Below are positions 11,137 through 49,661 of a DNA stretch of 64,000 bases, piece by piece. The DNA is from Octopus vulgaris (Eukaryota). The stretch's first letter is position 1. Each line of letters starts with the position of its first letter. Both the position numbers and the translations under genes were made by a program. The notes beneath the pieces were generated by a model. It was not told the origin of the DNA and searched no databases. It saw only the letters and a list, made by a program, of their open reading frames with translations. The DNA lies in assembly GCA_951406725.2 (NCBI GenBank), contig OX597821.1, positions 113,460,001-113,524,000 of the forward strand, given 5' to 3'.

Positions 11137-11229
11137 CATGACAACCGAGCTGTTCCTTCTATGGCTGATTTTGAGAGGAAGTTGTCAGAGTCCGATGTTT
11201 ATTTACAGATCCTTATTGAGCAAGTGAAG
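11137..11229 (+). CDS. OSBPL9: Internal coding exon of an OSBPL9/ORP9-like gene (HDNRAVPSMADFERKLSESDVYLQILIEQVK)
   Basis: Polypyrimidine tract + TTGCAG acceptor, AAG|GTAAGT donor, 93 bp phase 0-0. Peptide resembles the vertebrate ORP9 post-PH segment as recalled (VPS..DFDKKL.EAD.YLQILIEQLK). Confidence 0.85.
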
Positions 11230-12888: not shown

Positions 12889-14102
12889 ACAGATGCAGGC
12901 ATGGCTGTGTGGTTAAGAAGCTTGCTTCCTAACTATTTGGTCTTGAGTTTAATCCAACATACAGCATCTTTGGCAAGTGTCTTCTACCATAGTTTTGGGC
13001 TGACCGAAGCCATGTCAGTGAGTTTCATTGACAGAAAGTAAAAGAGACCCATGTATATATATATATATATATATATATATGCATATTTGTGTGTGTTTGC
13101 ATGTAATCTTGTTTCTGATATCACATGACAGTTGTAAACAAGCACAACCCTTATACAAGTGGTGTTGTTTGTTTCCTGTGTTTCGTGGGAAACATTTCCT
13201 TTCATGGGAAAATATTACTTGGCTTGGAAACAGGTGAGAGTAGCAACAGAAAGGGCAGCTAGCCAAAGAAAACTTGCATCCACAAAGTCCATCTGACCCA
13301 TGCATGCATGGAAAAATATATGTTAAACAGATATAATGTTCACACATGTACGTGCATGAGTGAGGGAACATATGAAAGAAGGTAGCACTCAACACATTTA
13401 ATTGGATTTGCATGTAGTCAACAACGGTTTGACTCAGCCCCACATGACTTAGTTTCTTGAGCATGTAGTTCACAGATTTTTGACAGCGCACTCCACTTTC
13501 AATCACCTGATGAAATGGACTTGTTTGGCACACCCATCAATCTTTAAGACACATGGAGCCAAAAAACAGATTGTTATTAAATACATGTAACTCTGATCAT
13601 ATGGGTCAAGTGAGACTTTCTTTCCTTTCTTCATTTACATGTGTGTGTGAAGGTGTGCGGCCTAGTGATCAGGGTGTTGCACTCACAACTGCAAGATCAT
13701 GGGTTCAGTTCCTGGACTGAGCAGTAAAACACTTCATTTCACTCTGTTCTGTAATTATTTCAACATCTGGCATGTGGCACGCATGCGGCATGCTTGTTTA
13801 CCTGGACAGGCAATGTCAGTTTAATGGAAGCAGTGAGCTAATGTACAGTATATATGAATTTGATTGGTTTAAACAAACCGTTTTGTGTAGGTCATTCACC
13901 AAAAACTGAACAAACCTATCATCTTCAATGAGAAATTACATCACACACAAACACACACACACACACACACACAAGTAAGCACACACGCATAGCAAGGTTG
14001 AGTAACATGCTTTTTATTAAATCTGAAAAAAATCTGTCTCTGAGCAGTAATGTGAAACTCCGAGTAACAGTTTATGAACATGTGTTTTAGCTTTAATAAA
14101 AA

Positions 14103-14134
<32 letters not shown>

Positions 14135-14200
14135 GTGTGTGTGTGTATTTATGTGTGCATATATATATGCGTGCATTTATATATGTATGCATATATATAT

Positions 14201-14494
14201 ATAGAATGGTTGTATACTGTCAATCTAACGTGAACGTGACAGTAGGGGATTGCACCACCGCTGTTTAGCCCTAGGAAGCATCAACGCTTCCTGATGGCTT
14301 CGACACAGGTTTTTCCTGTGTCCTTATATATTTACGAAGGGGAGACAAACACCCCCTTCGTAAATATATAAAGACACAGGAAAAAAATGTGTCGAAGCCA
14401 TCAGGAAGCGTTGATGCTTCCTAGGGCTAAACAGCGGTGGTGTAACCCCCTACTGTCACGTTCACGTTAGATTGACAGTATACAACCATTCTAT
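14201..14494. repeat. Near-perfect ~294-bp fold-back palindrome (MITE-like)
   Basis: Arms ~14201-14343 and ~14352-14494 are reverse complements with few mismatches. Confidence 0.92.
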
Positions 14495-14596
14495 CGCCCC
14501 ACCACCGTACATATCTCTATGAGATATTTAGAAATTTAATATTTCTGATATATATATATATTTATATATGTATTCATATATGTATTTATATTTGTT

Positions 14597-14631
<35 letters not shown>

Positions 14632-14955
14632 TTATGTATGCATATGTATGTATGTATTTATGTATGCATATGTATGTATGTATGTATGTATTTATGTATG
14701 CATATCATCATCATCATCATCATCATCATCGTTTAACGTCCGCTTTCCGCGCTAGCACGGGTTGGACGGTTTGACCGGGTCTGGGAAGCCAGGGGCCGCT
14801 CCAGGCTCCAGTCTGAATCTGGCAGAGTTTCTACGGCTGGATGCCCTTCCTAACGCCAACCACTCCGTGAGTGGATTGGGTGCTTTTTACGTGCCACCTG
14901 CACAGGGGCCGGAGGGTCCGGCATCGTCACGATCGGATTCGAGCATTTTAACGTG

Positions 14956-17118
14956 TCAGCGGCACGGGGGCAACGAGGTCCGGGGTACTTTGGGGATTGG
15001 GGTATTTTGGGGATCCAGGGTACTTTGGGGATCCGGGGTACTTTGGGGATCCGGGGTACTTAGAATGGGTAGGGGGGTACTTAGAATGGGTAGGGGGGTA
15101 CTTAGAATGGGTAGGGGGTATGTGGAATTGCTGCAGAAAGCAGCCCGGGTCTTTGTAGTCACAGCATATCTCCAGAGATCTCGGTCCTTCGCCATTGCCT
15201 CAGTGAGGCCCAATGCTCTGAGGTCATGCTTGACCACCTCATCCCATGTCTTCCTGGGTCTACCTCTCCCCTGATACCTTCAACTGTTTGGGAGTGGCAC
15301 TTCTTCACACATCTCTCTTCATCCATCCGCAGCACATGACCATACCATCGCAAGCGTCGCTCTTGCACACCACATCTGATGCTTCTTATATCCAGCATTT
15401 CTCTCAGGATACTTACACTCTGTTTTGCGTGCACACTGACACTACACATCCAGCGGATCATGCTAGCTTCATTTCTTTCAAGTCTACGCATGTCTTCTGC
15501 AGTCACAGCCCATGTTTCATTACCGTGAAGCATGGCAGTTCGCACACATGCATCATATAATCTACCTTTTGCTCTGAGGGAGAGGCCTTTTGTTGCCAGT
15601 AGGGGTAGGAGCTTTCTGAACTTTGCCCAGGCTATTCGTATTCTAGTGGTGATACTCTCTGTGCATCCACCTCCGCTACTAACTTGGTCTCCCAGGTAGC
15701 GGAAACTATCAACTACTTCTAGTTTCTCTCCCTGGAGTGTGATGGAATCTGTTTTCTGAGTGTCTGTTGTGTCTATTGTCCCTGTGCATCTGCCGCACAT
15801 GAAAGCTATCTTATCTGTTAATTTCCCTTTAATGTTGCTGCACCTCTTATGTGTCCATAACTTACATTGGGTGCATCTTATGGAGTTTCTACCTGTACCT
15901 TTCCTACAGGTTGAGCAGGGCCACCTACCCGAGGGGATGTGTGTTGAGTACCTCTTGCTGCTTACTAATACTTTGGTCTTTGCTACATTTATTCTAAGGC
16001 CCTTTGATTCCAACCCTTGCTTCCATACCCGAAATTTCTCTTCTAGTTCCGGTAGTGATTCTGCTATGAGAGCTAGGTCATCGGCATAGAGGAGCTCCCA
16101 GGGGCATCCCGTTTTGAATTCCTCTGTTATTGCTTGAAGTACTATGATGAACAAAAGGGGACTGAGGGCTGAGCCCTGGTGCACACCTACTTCTACTCGG
16201 AATTCTTCACTATATTCGTTGCCAATCCTAACCTTGCTAACAGCCTCTCTGTATAGAGCCTGTACAGCCCTTATTAGCCATTCTTCAATCTCCAGTTTCC
16301 GCATCGACCACCAGATAAGGGAACGGGGAACCCTGTCAAAGGCTTTCTCCAAGTCTACAAAAGCTATGTAGAGGGGTTTATCTTTAGCTAGGTACTTCTC
16401 CTGCAGTTGTCGGACCAGGAATATAGCATCAGTGGTGCTTCTACCTGGTACAAAACCGAACTGCATTTCATCTAAACAAATTCTCTCCCTAATGAGATTG
16501 GTTATGACCTTCTCTGAGACCTTCATCACCTGGTCCAACAGTTTGATACCTCTGTAGTTATTTCTATCTAGAGCATCACCCTTACCCTTGTAGCAGTTGA
16601 CTATGGTACTGCTGCACCAGTCATTGGGTATGGCTCCATTGTGAACTACCTGGTTTACAATGCGGGTGACTATGGCATGGCCCACATAGCCAGCTGTTTT
16701 AAGCATCTCAGCAGTGATTCCTGATAGGCCAGGGGCTTTGCCTGGTTTCATATCCTTAATTGCCTTATCTACAAGGGAGCTGTCTATTCGGGTAGCTGGT
16801 CCCTCTACTGGGTCAACATTTGGCAGGCTCTCCTCCTCCCATTCATTCTCCTCATTTAGCAGTCTTTCATAATGGCTTCTCCAGGCCTCTTTCTTTTCAC
16901 TAGTAGTAAAAGCAAGTGCCCCATCATCCATGCGGACACATTTCTCTCCTATAACATCGCTATTTTCTCTGACACACTGTCTGGCAATCCGAAATACTTC
17001 AGCTCTTTGATCCTCGCGACGCTGGACATTGGCAAACTTCTTCTTTTCTGCTACATCTTTGGCAATGTATACCTGCCGCCCAGCCTCCCTTTTGGCTATC
17101 TGGTACAGTTCCCTGCTG
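14956..17118 (-). CDS. RTE ORF, RT domain with inserted PHD finger and C-terminus (one further frameshift at ~15268-15271)
   Basis: KGKGD..NYRGIKL, QFGF..GRST.DAIF, FVDLEKAFDRV, GVHQGSALSPLLF, LLYADD, FRYLG, RLRWYGHV; C-terminal GRPRKTW..DRDLWR lies in the shifted frame ending at 14956. Confidence 0.92.
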
Positions 17119-18280
17119 CCCCCTCCTTCCAGGCTTTCCAGGCCCGTCTCTTTTCACAGATGGCTTTATCTACTGCACTATTCCACCACCACGTAATTCT
17201 AGGTCTGGAAGGGACTTTGCACCATCCACAAACTTGGTCTGTGGCACTCAACAAGCTGTCCCGTAGGAATTCCCAGCTACCTTCTATGTCTGACGTCTGA
17301 AGCTCCTCTTCCCTCTCATCAAATTTCTTGATGAGTATGTCCCTAAATTTCTGACCATGCGAAGGGTTCTTTAGCCTCCAAATCCTTCTTTTCTGGATTG
17401 GTTTGTTTCTTGGAGTCCTTCTGGCCTCAAGCTTAAAGTCACTGATGATTAGTCTATGCTGAGGGATACATTCTTCACCCGGGAGGGTCTTTGTATTCAA
17501 GAGCAACCCTGCATCCCGTTGTCTGGTGAGGATGAAGTCTATTTGGCTAGCGGAGTCTCCTGACTGATAAGTTATAAGGTGGCAGACTGGCTTCTTGAAG
17601 TTAGTGTTGCAGATTGAAAGGTTACATGCATCACAGAATTCCAGTAGTCTAGTTCCCTCATCGTTTCTGGTGCCAATACCATATCCACCATGTACCCCAG
17701 TGAAGATACCCGATTCCCGCCCAACATGCCCGTTAAAATCTCCACCTACAAAGATGAGGTCCTTGTTACTAGTCTTTGAAGTAGCCTGCAGAAGGGTATC
17801 ATAAAAGTTGTCCTTCTGATCATTTGGTAGTCCCGCTTGTGGGGCATAGGCTGAGATAATCATAGCTGTGCCACTCTGTAGGACCAACCTGAGCTTAAGC
17901 ACTCTATCACAAACCCTGACAACCTCTATGACCTTATCCACCCATTCCTCCGCAAGGAGAATGCCTACACCCCCTACACCTTCCGCGTTACCTTGCCAGT
18001 AGAGTTTGTATCTAAGTGCCTTGCCCGTGAGGACCCTAGCCGAAGCATCTCTCCATCTTACCTCTTGTATGCAGCATACATCAACCTGTCTTCTCTCTAG
18101 CATCTCTACAATCTCACTAGACTTGCCTGTCAATGTACCAACATTGATAGTGCCAACTCTGAAAACTGGGAAGGAGATGTGGGGGGACAGGGGGATTCGG
18201 CACCTGAGAAGAGGAGGGTTGTAGTGGTGGTGATAGTTTTCGTGGTATTTTTCTTTTGATCTCTCTTCCAACCTGACCAC
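17096..18280 (-). CDS. RTE ORF, N-terminal part: apurinic-like endonuclease (APE) domain
   Basis: Motifs GTINVGTL, CIQEVRW, GVGIL, SAYAPQ, GDFNGHVG, IDFIL, QHRLI. Frame shifts at C5 run ~17119-17123 into the RT frame. The listed start is GTG, not ATG. Confidence 0.92.
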   Translation of the reverse strand: MVRLEERSKEKYHENYHHHYNPPLLRCRIPLSPHISFPVFRVGTINVGTLTGKSSEIVEMLERRQVDVCCIQEVRWRDASARVLTGKALRYKLYWQGNAEGVGGVGILLAEEWVDKVIEVVRVCDRVLKLRLVLQSGTAMIISAYAPQAGLPNDQKDNFYDTLLQATSKTSNKDLIFVGGDFNGHVGRESGIFTGVHGGYGIGTRNDEGTRLLEFCDACNLSICNTNFKKPVCHLITYQSGDSASQIDFILTRQRDAGLLLNTKTLPGEECIPQHRLIISDFKLEARRTPRNKPIQKRRIWRLKNPSHGQKFRDILIKKFDEREEELQTSDIEGSWEFLRDSLLSATDQVCGWCKVPSRPRITWWWNSAVDKAICEKRRAWKAWKEGAAGNCTR

Positions 18281-18970
18281 GCCGTGGGCAGGAGCTGGTG
18301 TTAGCAGTGGACATTTGTTATCGTCTCTGAGTAACGTAATTAGGTAGAGGAAAGAAATACAGATATTCTAGAGTTGAGTTGGGGAGGTCCAGTTGAGGCG
18401 GGTAATATAGGGGAGCAACCAGTGGGGAAGGTTGGGGTAAGGAGGAACGATGGCAGGAAGGGTTGGTGTAGGTTCCTAAGAAATAAAAACGTAGGATATT
18501 ACGAGGCGGGAGGGTACTAAAGGGGATGGTCGGATTGACGAGGCGGGAGGGTACTAAAAGGGGATGGTCGGATTGAGGCAGTAAGCGTAAGATCGGTGGG
18601 CAGTTGATGAGCTATGGCGCTAGCAGCTTGTCTTAAGCATATGAGGAGAAGGGTACTAAAAGGGGATGGTCGGATTGAGGCAGTGTCAGGAGGAAGCGTA
18701 AGATCGGTGGGCAGTTGATGAGCTATGGCGCTAGCAGCTTGTCTTAAGCATATGAGGAGAAGTGGTAGTGGGGGGAGGAGGAGGGAGTAGGGCGTACCCA
18801 GTGTAGATGAGTAAGGTGTATCCGGTGTAGATGGAGAGAACGGGGTATACTGGTATTGGTGGTGGGGGGGGGTGAGAACAGTGTTCAACGGTATTGGTGG
18901 TGGGGGTGAGAACAGTGTTCAACGGTATTGGTGGTGGGGGTGGGGGGGCGGGCGCACCGCAATGGCTGAA

Positions 18971-20797
18971 AGATGGGAAAAAGATGGGATTACGGCTTGA
19001 GGCAGCCTGCGGTTAAATATTGTAGAGAGAGAGATAGGAAGATAAATCAAGTTATGGCGAAGGCTTGAAAGTAGCCTAAAAAAGGTTAAATTTTCGTAAC
19101 AGTGTATGAATAAACGTATTAACAACGAATAAAAAATATAGTAAGATAAATTTTTTAAGAACTTGCTGCGGTCATCGAGCGGGAGTTGAAATTGAAGAAG
19201 AAAGTAGTTGAACTGGGAATTTAAATTGCAGAATCGTAATAGTAATAGTAATGGCGGTTTTCAAGTTTTAGCATATGAAGAAGAAGAGGAGGAAAAAGAA
19301 GACAGATGGGAAAAAGATGGGATTACGGCTTGAGGCAGCCTGCGGTTAAATATTGTAGAGAGAGAGATAGGAAGATAAATCAAGTTATGGCGAAGGCTTG
19401 AAAGTAGCCTAAAAAAGGTTAAATTTTCGTAACAGTGTATGAATAAACGTATTAACAACGAATAAAAAATATAGTAAGATAAATTTTTTAAGAACTTGCT
19501 GCGGTCATCGAGCGGGAGTTGAAATTGAAGAAGAAAGTAGTTGAACTGGGAATTTAAATTGCAGAATCGTAATAGTAATAGTAATGGCGGTTTTCAAGTT
19601 TTAGCATATGAAGAAGAAGAGGAGGAAAAAGAAGACAGATGGGAAAAAGATGGGATTACGGCTTGAGGCAGCCTGCGGTTAAATATTGTAGAGAGAGAGA
19701 TAGGAAGATAAATCAAGTTATGGCGAAGGCTTGAAAGTAGCCTAAAAAAGGTTAAATTTTCGTAACAGTGTATGAATAAACGTATTAACAACGAATAAAA
19801 AATATAGTAAGATAAATTTTTTAAGAACTTGCTGCGGTCATCGAGCGGGAGTTGAAATTGAAGAAGAAAGTAGTTGAACTGGGAATTTAAATTGCAGAAT
19901 CGTAATAGTAATAGTAATGGCGGTTTTCAAGTTTTAGCATATGAAGAAGAAGAGGAGGAAAAAGAAGACAGATGGGAAAAAGATGGGATTACGGCTTGAG
20001 GCAGCCTGCGGTTAAATATTGTAGAGAGAGAGATAGGAAGATAAATCAAGTTATGGCGAAGGCTTGAAAGTAGCCTAAAAAAGGTTAAATTTTCGTAACA
20101 GTGTATGAATAAACGTATTAACAACGAATAAAAAATATAGTAAGATAAATTTTTTAAGAACTTGCTGCGGTCATCGAGCGGGAGTTGAAATTGAAGAAGA
20201 AAGTAGTTGAACTGGGAATTTAAATTGCAGAATCGTAATAGTAATAGTAATGGCGGTTTTCAAGTTTTAGCATATGAAGAAGAAGAGGAGGAAAAAGAAG
20301 ACAGATGGGAAAAAGATGGGATTACGGCTTGAGGCAGCCTGCGGTTAAATATTGTAGAGAGAGAGATAGGAAGATAAATCAAGTTATGGCGAAGGCTTGA
20401 AAGTAGCCTAAAAAAGGTTAAATTTTCGTAACAGTGTATGAATAAACGTATTAACAACGAATAAAAAATATAGTAAGATAAATTTTTTAAGAACTTGCTG
20501 CGGTCATCGAGCGGGAGTTGAAATTGAAGAAGAAAGTAGTTGAACTGGGAATTTAAATTGCAGAATCGTAATAGTAATAGTAATGGCGGTTTTCAAGTTT
20601 TAGCATATGAAGAAGAAGAGGAGGAAAAAGAAGACAGATGGGAAAAAGATGGGATTACGGCTTGAGGCAGCCTGCGGTTAAATATTGTAGAGAGAGAGAT
20701 AGGAAGATAAATCAAGTTATGGCGAAGGCTTGAAAGTAGCCTAAAAAAGGTTAAATTTTCGTAACAGTGTATGAATAAACGTATTAACAACGAATAA
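18971..20797 (-). repeat. Tandem array of 333-bp monomers (~5.5 copies) forming the 5' end of the RTE
   Basis: AGATGGGAAAAAGATGGG recurs at 18971, 19304, 19637, 19970, 20303, 20636. An identical 65-aa ORF recurs every 333 bp in the track. Confidence 0.97.
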
Positions 20798-20906
20798 CAT
20801 ATGTATGTATGTATTTATGTATGCATATGTATGTATGTATTTATGTATGCATATGTATGTATGTATTTATATATGCATTTATATATGTATATATATATAT
20901 ATATGT

Positions 20907-22095
20907 CATCATCATCATCGTTTAACTTTCCGTTTTCCATGCTAGCATGAGTTGGATGGTTCAACCGGGATCTTGGAAGCCAGGAGGCTGCACCAGGCTC
21001 CAGCCTGATCTGGCAGTCTGACTACAGCTGGATGCCCTTCCTATCACCAACCACTCTGTGAGTGTGGTGCGTGCTTTTTACGTGCCGCTGGCACAGGGGC
21101 CAGGGGAGGCAGGCAACAGCCATGATCAGTTGGTGCTTTTTACGTGCCACCAGCATGGAAGCCGGCCAAGGCGGTGCTGGCATTGGCCATGTTTGGATGG
21201 TGCTTTTTACGTGCCACCGGCACAGGTATCATAACTACAATTTCCACTTGATTTTTATTTTGATGTTGATGTACTTGACTCAATAGGTCTCCTGAAGCAC
21301 AGCAGATCGCCCCACGATCCAAGGTACTTTGAATGGGCTAGGACTGGTTGTGTGAAGCTGGTGTAGGATATAGCCATGAACTCACTTTATTTGTCGGGTC
21401 TTCGCAGTCACAGTATATCTTCAGAGTTGAGGCCCAATTTTCGAAGGTCATGCTTGGCCATCTCATCCTATGTCTTCCTGGGTTTACCTCTACCCCGGAC
21501 TCCTTCAACTGTTTGGGAGTGGCACTTCTTCACACATCTCTCCTCATCCATCCATAGTACATGACCATACCAGTGCAAACGTCTCTCTTGAATGCCACAT
21601 CTGATGCTTCTTATATCCAACATTTCTCTCAGGGCAATTACACTCTGTCGTGTGTGCACACTGACATTACACATCCAGCGGATCATGCTAGCTTCATTTC
21701 TTTCAAGCCTACGCATGTCCTCTGCAGTCACAGCCCATGTTTCACTGCCGTGAAGCATGGCAGTTTCACTCTGAGCAAGAGACCCTTTGTCACCAATAGG
21801 GGTAGAAGCTTTCTAAACTTTGCCCAGGCTACTCTTATTCTAGTAGTAACACTCTCTGAGCATCCACCCCCACAACTAACTTGGTCACCTAGGTAGCGGA
21901 AGCTATCAACTACTTCTAGTTTCTTCCCCTGGAGTATGATGGAATCTGTTTTCTGAGTATCTGTGTGCGCCTGTGCATCTGTCACACATGAAAGCTATCT
22001 TCTCGGTTAATTTTCCTTTAATGTTGCTGCACCTCTTATGCGTCCATTGCTTACACTGGGTACATCTTATGGAGTTTCTACCTACACCTTTTCGA
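20907..22095 (-). mobile_element. 5'-truncated, decayed copy of the same RTE family
   Basis: Encodes CRKGVGRNSIRCTQCKQWTHKRC (PHD part), LEVVDSFRYLG, ETWAVT..RLERNE; same 3' UTR and (GAT)n tail; internal deletion and frameshifts. Confidence 0.9.
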
Positions 22096-22522
22096 CATTC
22101 ATTCAAAACCTGTGATTTTTTTTACCCCACCTCTACCTCTTTAATCCTAGCAAATTATTTGAACAAACTCAATCCGGTTGTGTGACTGTCCAATCAAAAT
22201 CTGTTTAGATATCTCATCTGTTGCATGTGGTCATTGTATTATTGTCACTAAGGTTCATCACAAAACGAGTATGAGTTGTGATCAATATTAATTACGTGTC
22301 TCTGCTGTTAGTCTCCTATGTAATCAGCAATCAATATTAAACTACAGGTAAATATTACCTGAAACCAGATTTTCAACAATTGATGCAATGAGTAAAAGAT
22401 GTAATTAGATTTTTGAGAGAGACGTGTTTGTGTACACATAATGCTTCTATTCCTTTGTGTTCCATTCCCAAAGCTGTGGCCATGCTTCAGCACCACTATT
22501 AGTCTACATGGATATGTATGTG

Positions 22523-22556
<34 letters not shown>

Positions 22557-23897
22557 AACATACACACAGATTTGTATATTTGTGTGTGTATATATACATA
22601 TATATACCGAAGATTCATAATATAATTGGTATTTTATGTTTTATTTTAATCAGTTATTTAATTAATGAAATATTCCAACATCAGTTGTCATATGTTTATC
22701 TCGTTTCATATTGTAGATTATAGATATATATGTATAATCATGCATACACACATACGGTAGAAAAAATAGTACTCGAATACCGAAGGTAGAGTAATAAACT
22801 TTTCATTAAAGCGGCAAAATTATGGCAAGATTGTTACTCAGTTTGTCGGACAATTTTTGATGAAAACTTAATGAAAACTGTGATTGTGCATGTAATATAG
22901 TGTGATGTTTATGCGTGGATGTTTCTATGTGTTTGTAGGTATAATATTGAGATTGTGCATATTTACATATGGTTATGTATGCATGTAATTATATATGTCT
23001 GTATATGTTTTTATCTATGTATATTTGCTTGTACACTGTAAATTTGTTATTGAATTTTCCTTTTATTTTAATGCCACTTATTTTTATCTCATTTTTTAAC
23101 ACCTGTACACCTGTCTTGTGATCCTACTTCATTATTAATTATTATCAGTTAGTTAATTCATTAATTTTGGTACTTCCCCCCCCCATTCTAAGCAAGGTTT
23201 TTTTTGTTGTTGTTTTTTTTATTAAAATGTGATTAAATGAAGCCAGCAAGCTGGCAGAATCATTAGCACACCAGGTGAAATGCTTAGTGGTATTTCACCT
23301 GTTGCTCCATTCTGAGTTCAAATTCCGCCTAGGTCGACTTTGCCTTTCATCCTTTCGGGGTCGATTAAATAAGTATCAGTTACACACTGGGATCGATATA
23401 ATCGACTTAATTCATTTGTCTGTCCTTGTTTGTCCCCTTTGTTTAGGTGGGTAGTAAAGAAATAGGTATTTCACCCGTTGCTCCGTTCTGAGTTCAAATT
23501 CCGCTAAGGTTGACTTTGCCTTTCATCCTTTCGGGGTCGATAAATTAAGTACCAGTGAAACGCTGGTATCGATGTGTTTTTATGTAGGTACAGTGTTAAG
23601 ATTATGCATATTTACATAAGTTACCCCCACCCACCCACCCAATTATATCATAATATATATATATATTTATACTTTACTGCTAATTTTCAAACACTCAGCT
23701 TGTAATGAAAATCAATCACCCAATCAAATTTAAAAGCTCATTCATTGATTTGAATTATATTGCATCACACTATATTACATATACAATCAGATTTTTAATT
23801 CAGTTTTTATCACAACCATCCAACAAATGAGAACATGAAACTCTAACAGTTTTGTGATAATTTTACAGCTTTAATAAAAGCATATATATATACATAC

Positions 23898-24595: not shown

Positions 24596-24890
24596 CACAT
24601 ATATATAAGTGTGTATATGTATGTACATGCCTGTGAGGTACCCATCCATAGGAATATGACCAGGCTGCTTGAAATAGAGGGTTTAAAAATCTGAAGTCAG
24701 AGATTAACATTGTTCTTACAAAAGATTATTAAAAGTACAATTTATTTGTTTTAAATTTTAATTTTATCTATCAGTTAATCTCTTATACTAAATACTGGTT
24801 TCAAATTCTGGTACAAGGCTGGCAATTTTATGGACTGAAAGAATGAGAGGCAAAGTCAACTTTGGTAAAATTTGAATTCTGATCATGAAA

Positions 24891-25250
24891 ACAGAGGGAG
24901 CACTCCCAACAAAACAACAGAGGGAGCACTCCCAACAAAACAAAACACAGGGAGCTCTCCCAACAAAACAACAGAGGGAGCACTCCCAACAAAACAACAG
25001 AGGGAGCACTCCCAACAAAACAACAGAGGGAGCACTCCCAACAAAACAACAGAGGGAGCACTCCCAACAAAACAACAGAGGGAGCACTCCCAACAAAACA
25101 ACAGAGGGAGCACTCCCAACAAAACAACACAGGGAGCACTCCCAACAAAACAACACAGGGAGCACTCCCAACAAAACAACACAGGGAGCACTCCCAACAA
25201 AACAACACAGGGGTCACCCCCAACGAAACAACACTGAGGGCACCCAACTA
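24891..25250 (+). repeat. 26-bp minisatellite (ACAGAGGGAGCACTCCCAACAAAACA)n, ~13 units
   Basis: Direct reading; each unit holds the inverted repeat GGGAG-CA-CTCCC. Confidence 0.95.
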
Positions 25251-25741: not shown

Positions 25742-25819
25742 TCCCTTGAAGACAGGATTGAATTATGTGAGGACTTAACTGTCAAGGAAAAGTACAATGT
25801 TATCAAAGTCACGGCCGAG
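25742..25819 (+). CDS. OSBPL9: Internal coding exon of OSBPL9-like gene (SLEDRIELCEDLTVKEKYNVIKVTAE)
   Basis: T-rich tract + TTTTCAG acceptor, GAG|GTAATT donor, 78 bp phase 0-0, in frame with neighbours. Fits the helical segment following LIEQ(L/V)K in ORP9. Confidence 0.78.
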
Positions 25820-49570: not shown

Positions 49571-49661
49571 GAAAGTTTAAAAGGTCCAGTTGTAAATAGT
49601 ACATTGTATGATTTAGTGCCCGCTGCACCACGTATCAAAATACATCCTGCCGAAGCGGCAA
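49571..49661 (+). CDS. OSBPL9: Probable next coding exon of OSBPL9-like gene (ESLKGPVVNSTLYDLVPAAPRIKIHPAEAA), low-conservation linker
   Basis: Long T-rich tract + CAACAG|G acceptor, A|GTAAGT donor, open in phase 0. Non-repetitive sequence; homology not recognisable by eye. Confidence 0.65.

Follow-up and report, generated by a model that had tools for sequence, protein, structure and literature searches.

A tandem array of 333-bp units at the 5' end of an RTE-type LINE in Octopus vulgaris, a putative monomer promoter of the rodent L1 kind

The closest described systems are the L1 elements of mouse and rat, in which an array of monomers is followed by a tether; shorter duplications are found in other mammals and none in the lizard, according to the available part of PMC5381506. 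A 5' array with a high number of monomers has been singled out as a special trait of mouse L1, the truncation sites of which cluster and agree with CAGE data, and the mechanism of duplication is called unclear (PMC6454616, in part). Young mouse L1 subfamilies carry a mean of 1.5-3.7 monomers, with antisense activity too; the activity of the monomers is complex and nonlinear, and strict additivity is not the rule (PMC9022269, in part). Further octopus, mollusc and RTE literature comprises PMC12988792, PMC10294476 and PMC6007223 (all in part). Titles and the openings of abstracts contained no report of RTE or cephalopod LINEs with a monomer array at the 5' end; Repbase, Dfam and most subscription journals lay outside this scope. 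The A-module of the Dictyostelium element TRE5-A can be tandemly repeated. This 5' module of ~200 bp has promoter activity in a non-LTR element from outside the mammals (PMC3159450, in part).

The window, i.e., the whole stretch of DNA analysed here, has a length of 64,000 nucleotides and originates from Octopus vulgaris. It contains a young 6.1-kb single-ORF LINE on the minus strand with endonuclease, reverse transcriptase (RT), PHD-like finger and (GAT)n tail, the 5' leader of which is continued by a tandem array. That this array is the LINE's own 5' end, so that an RTE-type LINE would have a monomer promoter like that of rodent L1, is the most likely reading, at about even odds. The features are summarized in Table 1.

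Table 1. Position of the array, the LINE, its flanks and the neighbouring host exons in the window
Feature	Position	Strand	Remarks
Host exon upstream of the insertion	11137..11229	+	OSBPL9/ORP9-like
Flanking minisatellite, 26-bp unit	14616..14703	.	element's 3' side
3' UTR	14704..14955	-	also carried by at least 10 older fragments within the window
Single coding region: AP endonuclease, RT (YADD), PHD-like finger	14956..18314	-	~3.35 kb
Unique 5' leader (tether-like)	18315..18956	-	~54% GC, GC-rich stretch first
ORF-proximal partial unit	18957..19132	-	162 bp same as full units, plus ~14 bp more
Five full 333-bp units	19133..20797	-	TRF and lag comparison; mutually identical
Full units, from the element's 5' end	20797-20465, 20464-20132, 20131-19799, 19798-19466, 19465-19133	-	
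Matching flanking minisatellite	20798..20906	.	element's 5' side
Following host exon	25742..25819	+	OSBPL9/ORP9-like

The array was detected by TRF at 18971-20797 (period 333, 5.5 copies, 100% matches). Comparison at lag 333 gave 0 mismatches over the 1,494 positions of 18971-20464, with mismatches beginning at 18970 and at 20465. Both results bear out the ~5.5 identical 333-bp units described in an earlier note on this DNA. The element start proposed there was also recovered: on its sense strand (minus) the array opens with TTATTCGTT at 20797, and each of the five full units starts likewise. The sixth unit breaks off after 162 bp and is followed by the unique GC-rich leader, with no spacer between array and leader. 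Homology of this ORF-proximal partial unit extends ~14 bp beyond 18971, to ~18957; the additional segment (18957-18970) is missing from the window's five full units. A full unit has a G+C content of 35%, is 66% pyrimidine on the sense strand and contains 11 CpG. The end of the proximal unit (18965-18990, minus strand) has the look of a strong splice acceptor, a pyrimidine tract being followed by CAG at 18966. In the five full units, the deletion of 14 bp takes out the acceptor AG together with a CCAAT word, both of which would be retained in the 347-354-bp units that are common in other data sets (see below).

The coding region starts with an ATG at 18314 and contains no stops; its end at ~14956 was counted by hand. 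One-base frame breaks are located near 17118 and 15267. They may be consensus errors, because both sit in G/C runs in which the contigs of other copies have one more base. Profile matches gave the domain order PF03372/PF14529, then PF00078, and both frames are covered by alignments with full-length homologues of ~1,050 aa. Upstream frames in the leader are short ones only, and ORF1 is absent. The leader contains internal duplications of 34, 24, ~111 and 38 bp. The (GAT)9 tail is located at 14704-14730. A PHD-like finger was observed at 15820-15900 (RT frame residues 412-456), after the RT core. It is common to many of the ~1,050-aa homologues, which suggests that these could form a widespread sub-lineage of RTE-type LINEs. 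In the RT frame, the part from residue 480 to position 15270 contains no pattern of a C-terminal CCHC knuckle.

The element is probably an RTE-type LINE, a label given by its architecture (single ORF, tail); none of the protein matches bears the name RTE. Identity with RTE-2_OV was considered and rejected, as each of the four published primers tested has 6-7 mismatches in 20 positions at best. No Rfam ribozyme was found at E<=1 in 14000-23000 in a search for self-cleaving ribozymes; the output for this interval consisted of low-complexity, miRNA-like chance matches only. A loose custom pattern for HDV-like ribozymes, which had no positive control, gave 0 matches, and neither unit nor leader has a stable fold (folding z -0.19 and 0.03). 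Distant relatives comprise 31 metagenome loci and one locus from a viral collection, 27-57% identical in the best endonuclease segment. None of the 31 distant-relative loci tested matches unit or leader, and a 5' array of units >150 bp is present in 0 of the 32 relatives, which are mostly short contigs that would collapse one. A scan of genome contigs found no relative.

Some further copies and pieces of the family were observed. An older 5'-truncated copy, 80-84% identical, is located on the same strand at 20906-22097, just past the 5' flank, and several family copies in the window adjoin TA-rich microsatellites. A joint of 15167 to 18318, observed in two of the runs described below, fuses the leader to the 3' end (depth 2,452 in X1 and 6.8 in X19) and shows an ORF-less bipartite non-autonomous derivative, with very roughly 50 copies in X1. 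An O. vulgaris gene model contains a 67% identical piece of the element's endonuclease; the O. vulgaris MAP3K5 gene model (P0082) starts with ~33 endonuclease residues, by exonisation or gene-model error.

The 26-bp unit of the flanking minisatellites occurs at 14644, 14678, 20801 and 20827, i.e., twice per side, and has no further copy in the window. Array and LINE have therefore split a single minisatellite, most simply through one insertion event that brought in at least part of the array. Any target-site duplication of 17-29 bp is compatible with the data, the minisatellite flanks leaving its size indefinite. Of the flank duplication postulated earlier, the shared flanks with the array inside the insertion stand, and the duplicated sequence turned out to be the 26-bp minisatellite unit, compatible with that whole range of sizes. 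The claim that the array belongs inside the element's insertion is supported by these shared flanks and by its joining the leader without a spacer. The host is an OSBPL9/ORP9-like gene on the plus strand with very long introns (11137-49661). Its exons at 11137-11229, 25742-25819, ~46299 and 49571-49661 match bivalve ORP9 proteins in order; the LINE is therefore intronic, lying between the first two of these exons, and antisense to the host gene. The orientation is thus as the earlier note had it, and antisense transcription into the host gene would follow from the orientation only. The same intron contains a minisatellite at 24890-25233 (13 copies of a 26-bp unit, 95% matches). At 14201-14494, at a distance of 120 bp from the 3' flank of the LINE, there is a near-perfect palindrome with a 10-bp loop and 142-bp arms that are 96% complementary; it probably represents a MITE or foldback element.

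The unit with its junctions is present in 20 of 24 listed runs (10 studies, 5 organisms), at shares of 0.72-0.86. None of these runs is on record as RNA. They include runs with just 24-41 million letters of contigs, and the unit is therefore high-copy. Contigs of four of the 20 runs were compared with 15130-19303 at 90% likeness, and the results below refer to the pieces and joints listed. Head-to-tail closure of the unit was found in all four, which represent three organisms (joint from 19300 back to 18960). The unit closes as a 354-bp cycle in X4 and X19, and junction variants in X1 give 347 bp; these common 347-354-bp units hold the segment 18957-18970. A monomer length of 333 bp accordingly applies to the window copy, and units of 347-354 bp to the other data sets. 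The 333-bp junction is not among the joints listed in the four runs compared. Its absence from X1 fits the share of this run, 0.86, as compared with 0.87 expected for a run that lacks the words of junction and leader.

Since head-to-tail closure was found in four of four independent runs, the tandem form is no assembly artefact, a possibility that had been raised earlier, and it is common to at least three organisms. It is very improbable that array length or perfect identity is an artefact of assembly or polishing. The frame breaks in G/C runs do resemble long-read consensus errors, but the tandem form occurs in independent runs, and polishing would presumably favour the common 347-354-bp type, not five identical 14-bp deletions. 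An artefact of this kind could alter the unit count, not the architecture.

Linkage between the unit and the remainder of the element was assessed in the same four runs. Among the contig pieces and joints listed at 90% likeness there is no bridge from unit to leader. The listed pieces end at 18897-18905 and at 18960, flanking a G-run (18905-18956), and in one X4 contig the unit gives way at 19301 to at least 255 unlike bases. Unit depth is 0.65-1.17 times RT 3' depth in the three runs with a computed ratio, i.e., within a factor of 1.6. Raw unit depth exceeds that of the endonuclease 17-fold in X1 and 10-fold in X19, and that of the leader 41-fold and 36-fold, respectively, and in X2 the unit is present with zero cover on leader and endonuclease; in all of these ratios summed contig depth is not copy number. 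The raw excess over the endonuclease is larger than 5.5 units per element, so part of the units could be free satellite. A truncation fit on RT bins only, which is the version quoted, gives 3.3 units per 5' end in X1 (the deepest run), 16 in X19 and 19 in X2. Such values of 3-19 units fit element-borne arrays, long ones too, and also a share of free satellite. The fit over all bins (~80 units per 5' end) was set aside; the abrupt drop near 17000 is likely an effect of the 90% filter.

Seventeen of the 26 differences between the X1 majority and the window copy are silent, where 28% are expected (P=7e-5, among the 40 rows listed, with 163 more beyond them), so the window copy would be a coding-constrained minor lineage. 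The listed endonuclease pieces have ~90% likeness, i.e., they are at the filter limit. Because of this and of the silent-site divergence, the 90% filter likely removes the main lineage's 5' parts, so that the numbers of endonuclease and leader copies come out too low. A very rough estimate for X1 is ~8,600 units versus 200-500 element copies, if 47.5 is the single-copy depth and with leader and endonuclease counts as lower bounds.

These data bear on the view that most of the units belong to an independent satellite, and that part of it became fused to the 5' end of a LINE copy or small sub-lineage by template switch during reverse transcription or by recombination. We consider this somewhat unlikely. 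The depth of the unit, far above that of leader and endonuclease, and the lack of a unit-leader bridge among the contigs listed speak for it, and the tandem cycle is compatible with it as well. Satellites are also abundant: 80 families account for 3.12% of the O. vulgaris assembly (PMC13282606, in part). However, summed contig depth is no copy number, the counts that make the excess so large are lower bounds from pieces at ~90% likeness, and unit depth follows RT depth closely in three runs. The proximal unit, moreover, is unlike the other five.

Signs of a promoter were sought in the unit. The CpG observed/expected ratio is 1.45 in the unit, as compared with 0.84 for the leader, 0.34 for the ORF and 0.40 for the remainder of the window; this CpG richness has P=3e-4, with one of 516 windows equally rich. 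ATGGCGG occurs at 19251+333n and ATGGCG at 19054+333n. Two ATGGCG per unit exceed the expectation from dinucleotide shuffles (P=0.003, 3,000 shuffles, for a motif picked after the fact). The full YY1 site AANATGGC has 0 occurrences per unit, and the nearest ATGGCG core is located ~75 bp downstream of the element's 5' end. The YY1-like cores claimed earlier are therefore present at the positions given, every 333 bp, but as the core hexamer only. With no full site, and with a 5' end that does not adjoin a core, they make a weak case for YY1.

It is unlikely that the unit is a part of the 5' UTR with neutral repetition, expanded at the locus after insertion, with the promoter in the GC-rich leader or with transcription by read-through. 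Both UTRs are duplication-prone (34, 24, ~111, 38, 21 and 18 bp), small leader duplications are also found in the relatives L003, L010, L021 and L025, and a GC-rich stretch is located at the start of the leader. With the 333-bp junction absent among the joints listed and the X1 share close to that expected without it, the variant may be private to the locus. The tandem form, however, is not private, given the tandem junction in four of four other runs from three organisms, and CpG is richer in the unit than in the leader.

If the array is the LINE's own 5' end, the CpG-rich units would constitute a repeated RNA polymerase II promoter ahead of the unique leader and the endonuclease-RT frame, each unit contributing a polymerase II start and the elements upstream of it. 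Transcripts would begin within a unit, perhaps at TTATTCGTT, the first bases of the window copy; the 5' phase of element starts is known from this one copy (n=1). Whatever part of the array precedes the start would be lost from a daughter copy, which would retain working units downstream, and unequal exchange or slippage could restore the lost units. The linkage of unit and LINE would in this case extend to the whole family. The loss of 14 bp from all five full units is likely the trace of such a regrowth, a recent one, at the locus or in the source element. Five full units sharing the deletion, next to a proximal unit without it, point to a very recent sweep of the deletion variant, which fills five positions without any later change. 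With the rate given in PMC13282606 (in part), 0.0036 substitutions per site per million years, the homogeneity of the array corresponds to less than about 0.3 million years, provided that the assembly has not homogenised the units. Taken further, an RTE-type LINE in several related cephalopods could have independently evolved self-regenerating promoter monomers of ~350 bp, with the locus representing a 333-bp variant just after a sweep; this extended scenario is possible and is put forward tentatively.

If true, convergent monomers in a single-ORF mollusc LINE would point to a general answer to 5' erosion, and the unit would be a candidate promoter for the active octopus LINEs, whose expression in the brain is debated. 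It would also draw attention to LINE 5' ends that are listed separately, as 'satellite', in repeat libraries built from short reads. The marked deletion variant could separate regrowth in place from regrowth during retrotransposition. If the unit is merely a captured satellite, the locus is a minor chimera.

Compared with known systems, the octopus element shares with the RTE-clade LINEs, including RTE-2_OV, a single endonuclease-RT ORF of ~3.3 kb with a zinc-binding motif (PMC9115989, in part), and with the clade, as partly described, a unique leader of ~600 bp, repeats into the ORF end and a microsatellite tail. RTE families make ORF-less derivatives (PMC5786205, in part), as does the octopus element with its joint 15167-18318. 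For RTE-2_OV, the available part of PMC9115989 mentions no 5' monomer array ('monomer' has 0 occurrences). TRE5-A differs as an amoeba element with two ORFs that targets tRNA genes. Satellites joined to retrotransposon UTRs or derived from them are similar in being high-copy tandem units of a few hundred bases, common to related species and rapidly homogenised; unlike these, the octopus array is short and located exactly at the 5' end of a LINE, inside shared flanks. L1 belongs to a different clade: the octopus element has one ORF, no ORF1 and a (GAT)n tail, and L1 ORF2p matches it over the RT core only (E 2e-23). Its unit has 333-354 bp with 35% GC, versus ~200 bp in mouse, and the copy carries 5.5 units, versus a mean of 1.5-3.7 (PMC9022269, in part). 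Unlike the mouse T and G monomers, the octopus unit is without the full YY1 site and its 5' end is off the core (PMC5381506, PMC6454616, both in part), yet the ATGGC cores are oriented as in their GCCATCTT YY1 site (PMC6454616, in part). In common with mouse and rat L1 (L1Md A, Tf, Gf), the window copy has tandem CpG-containing 5' units and a unique tether to the coding region, and the element starts mid-unit; as in mouse L1, the proximal unit differs from the upstream units (PMC9022269, PMC6454616, both in part). By analogy, the element would most likely work like a rodent L1 monomer promoter, yet outside that family.
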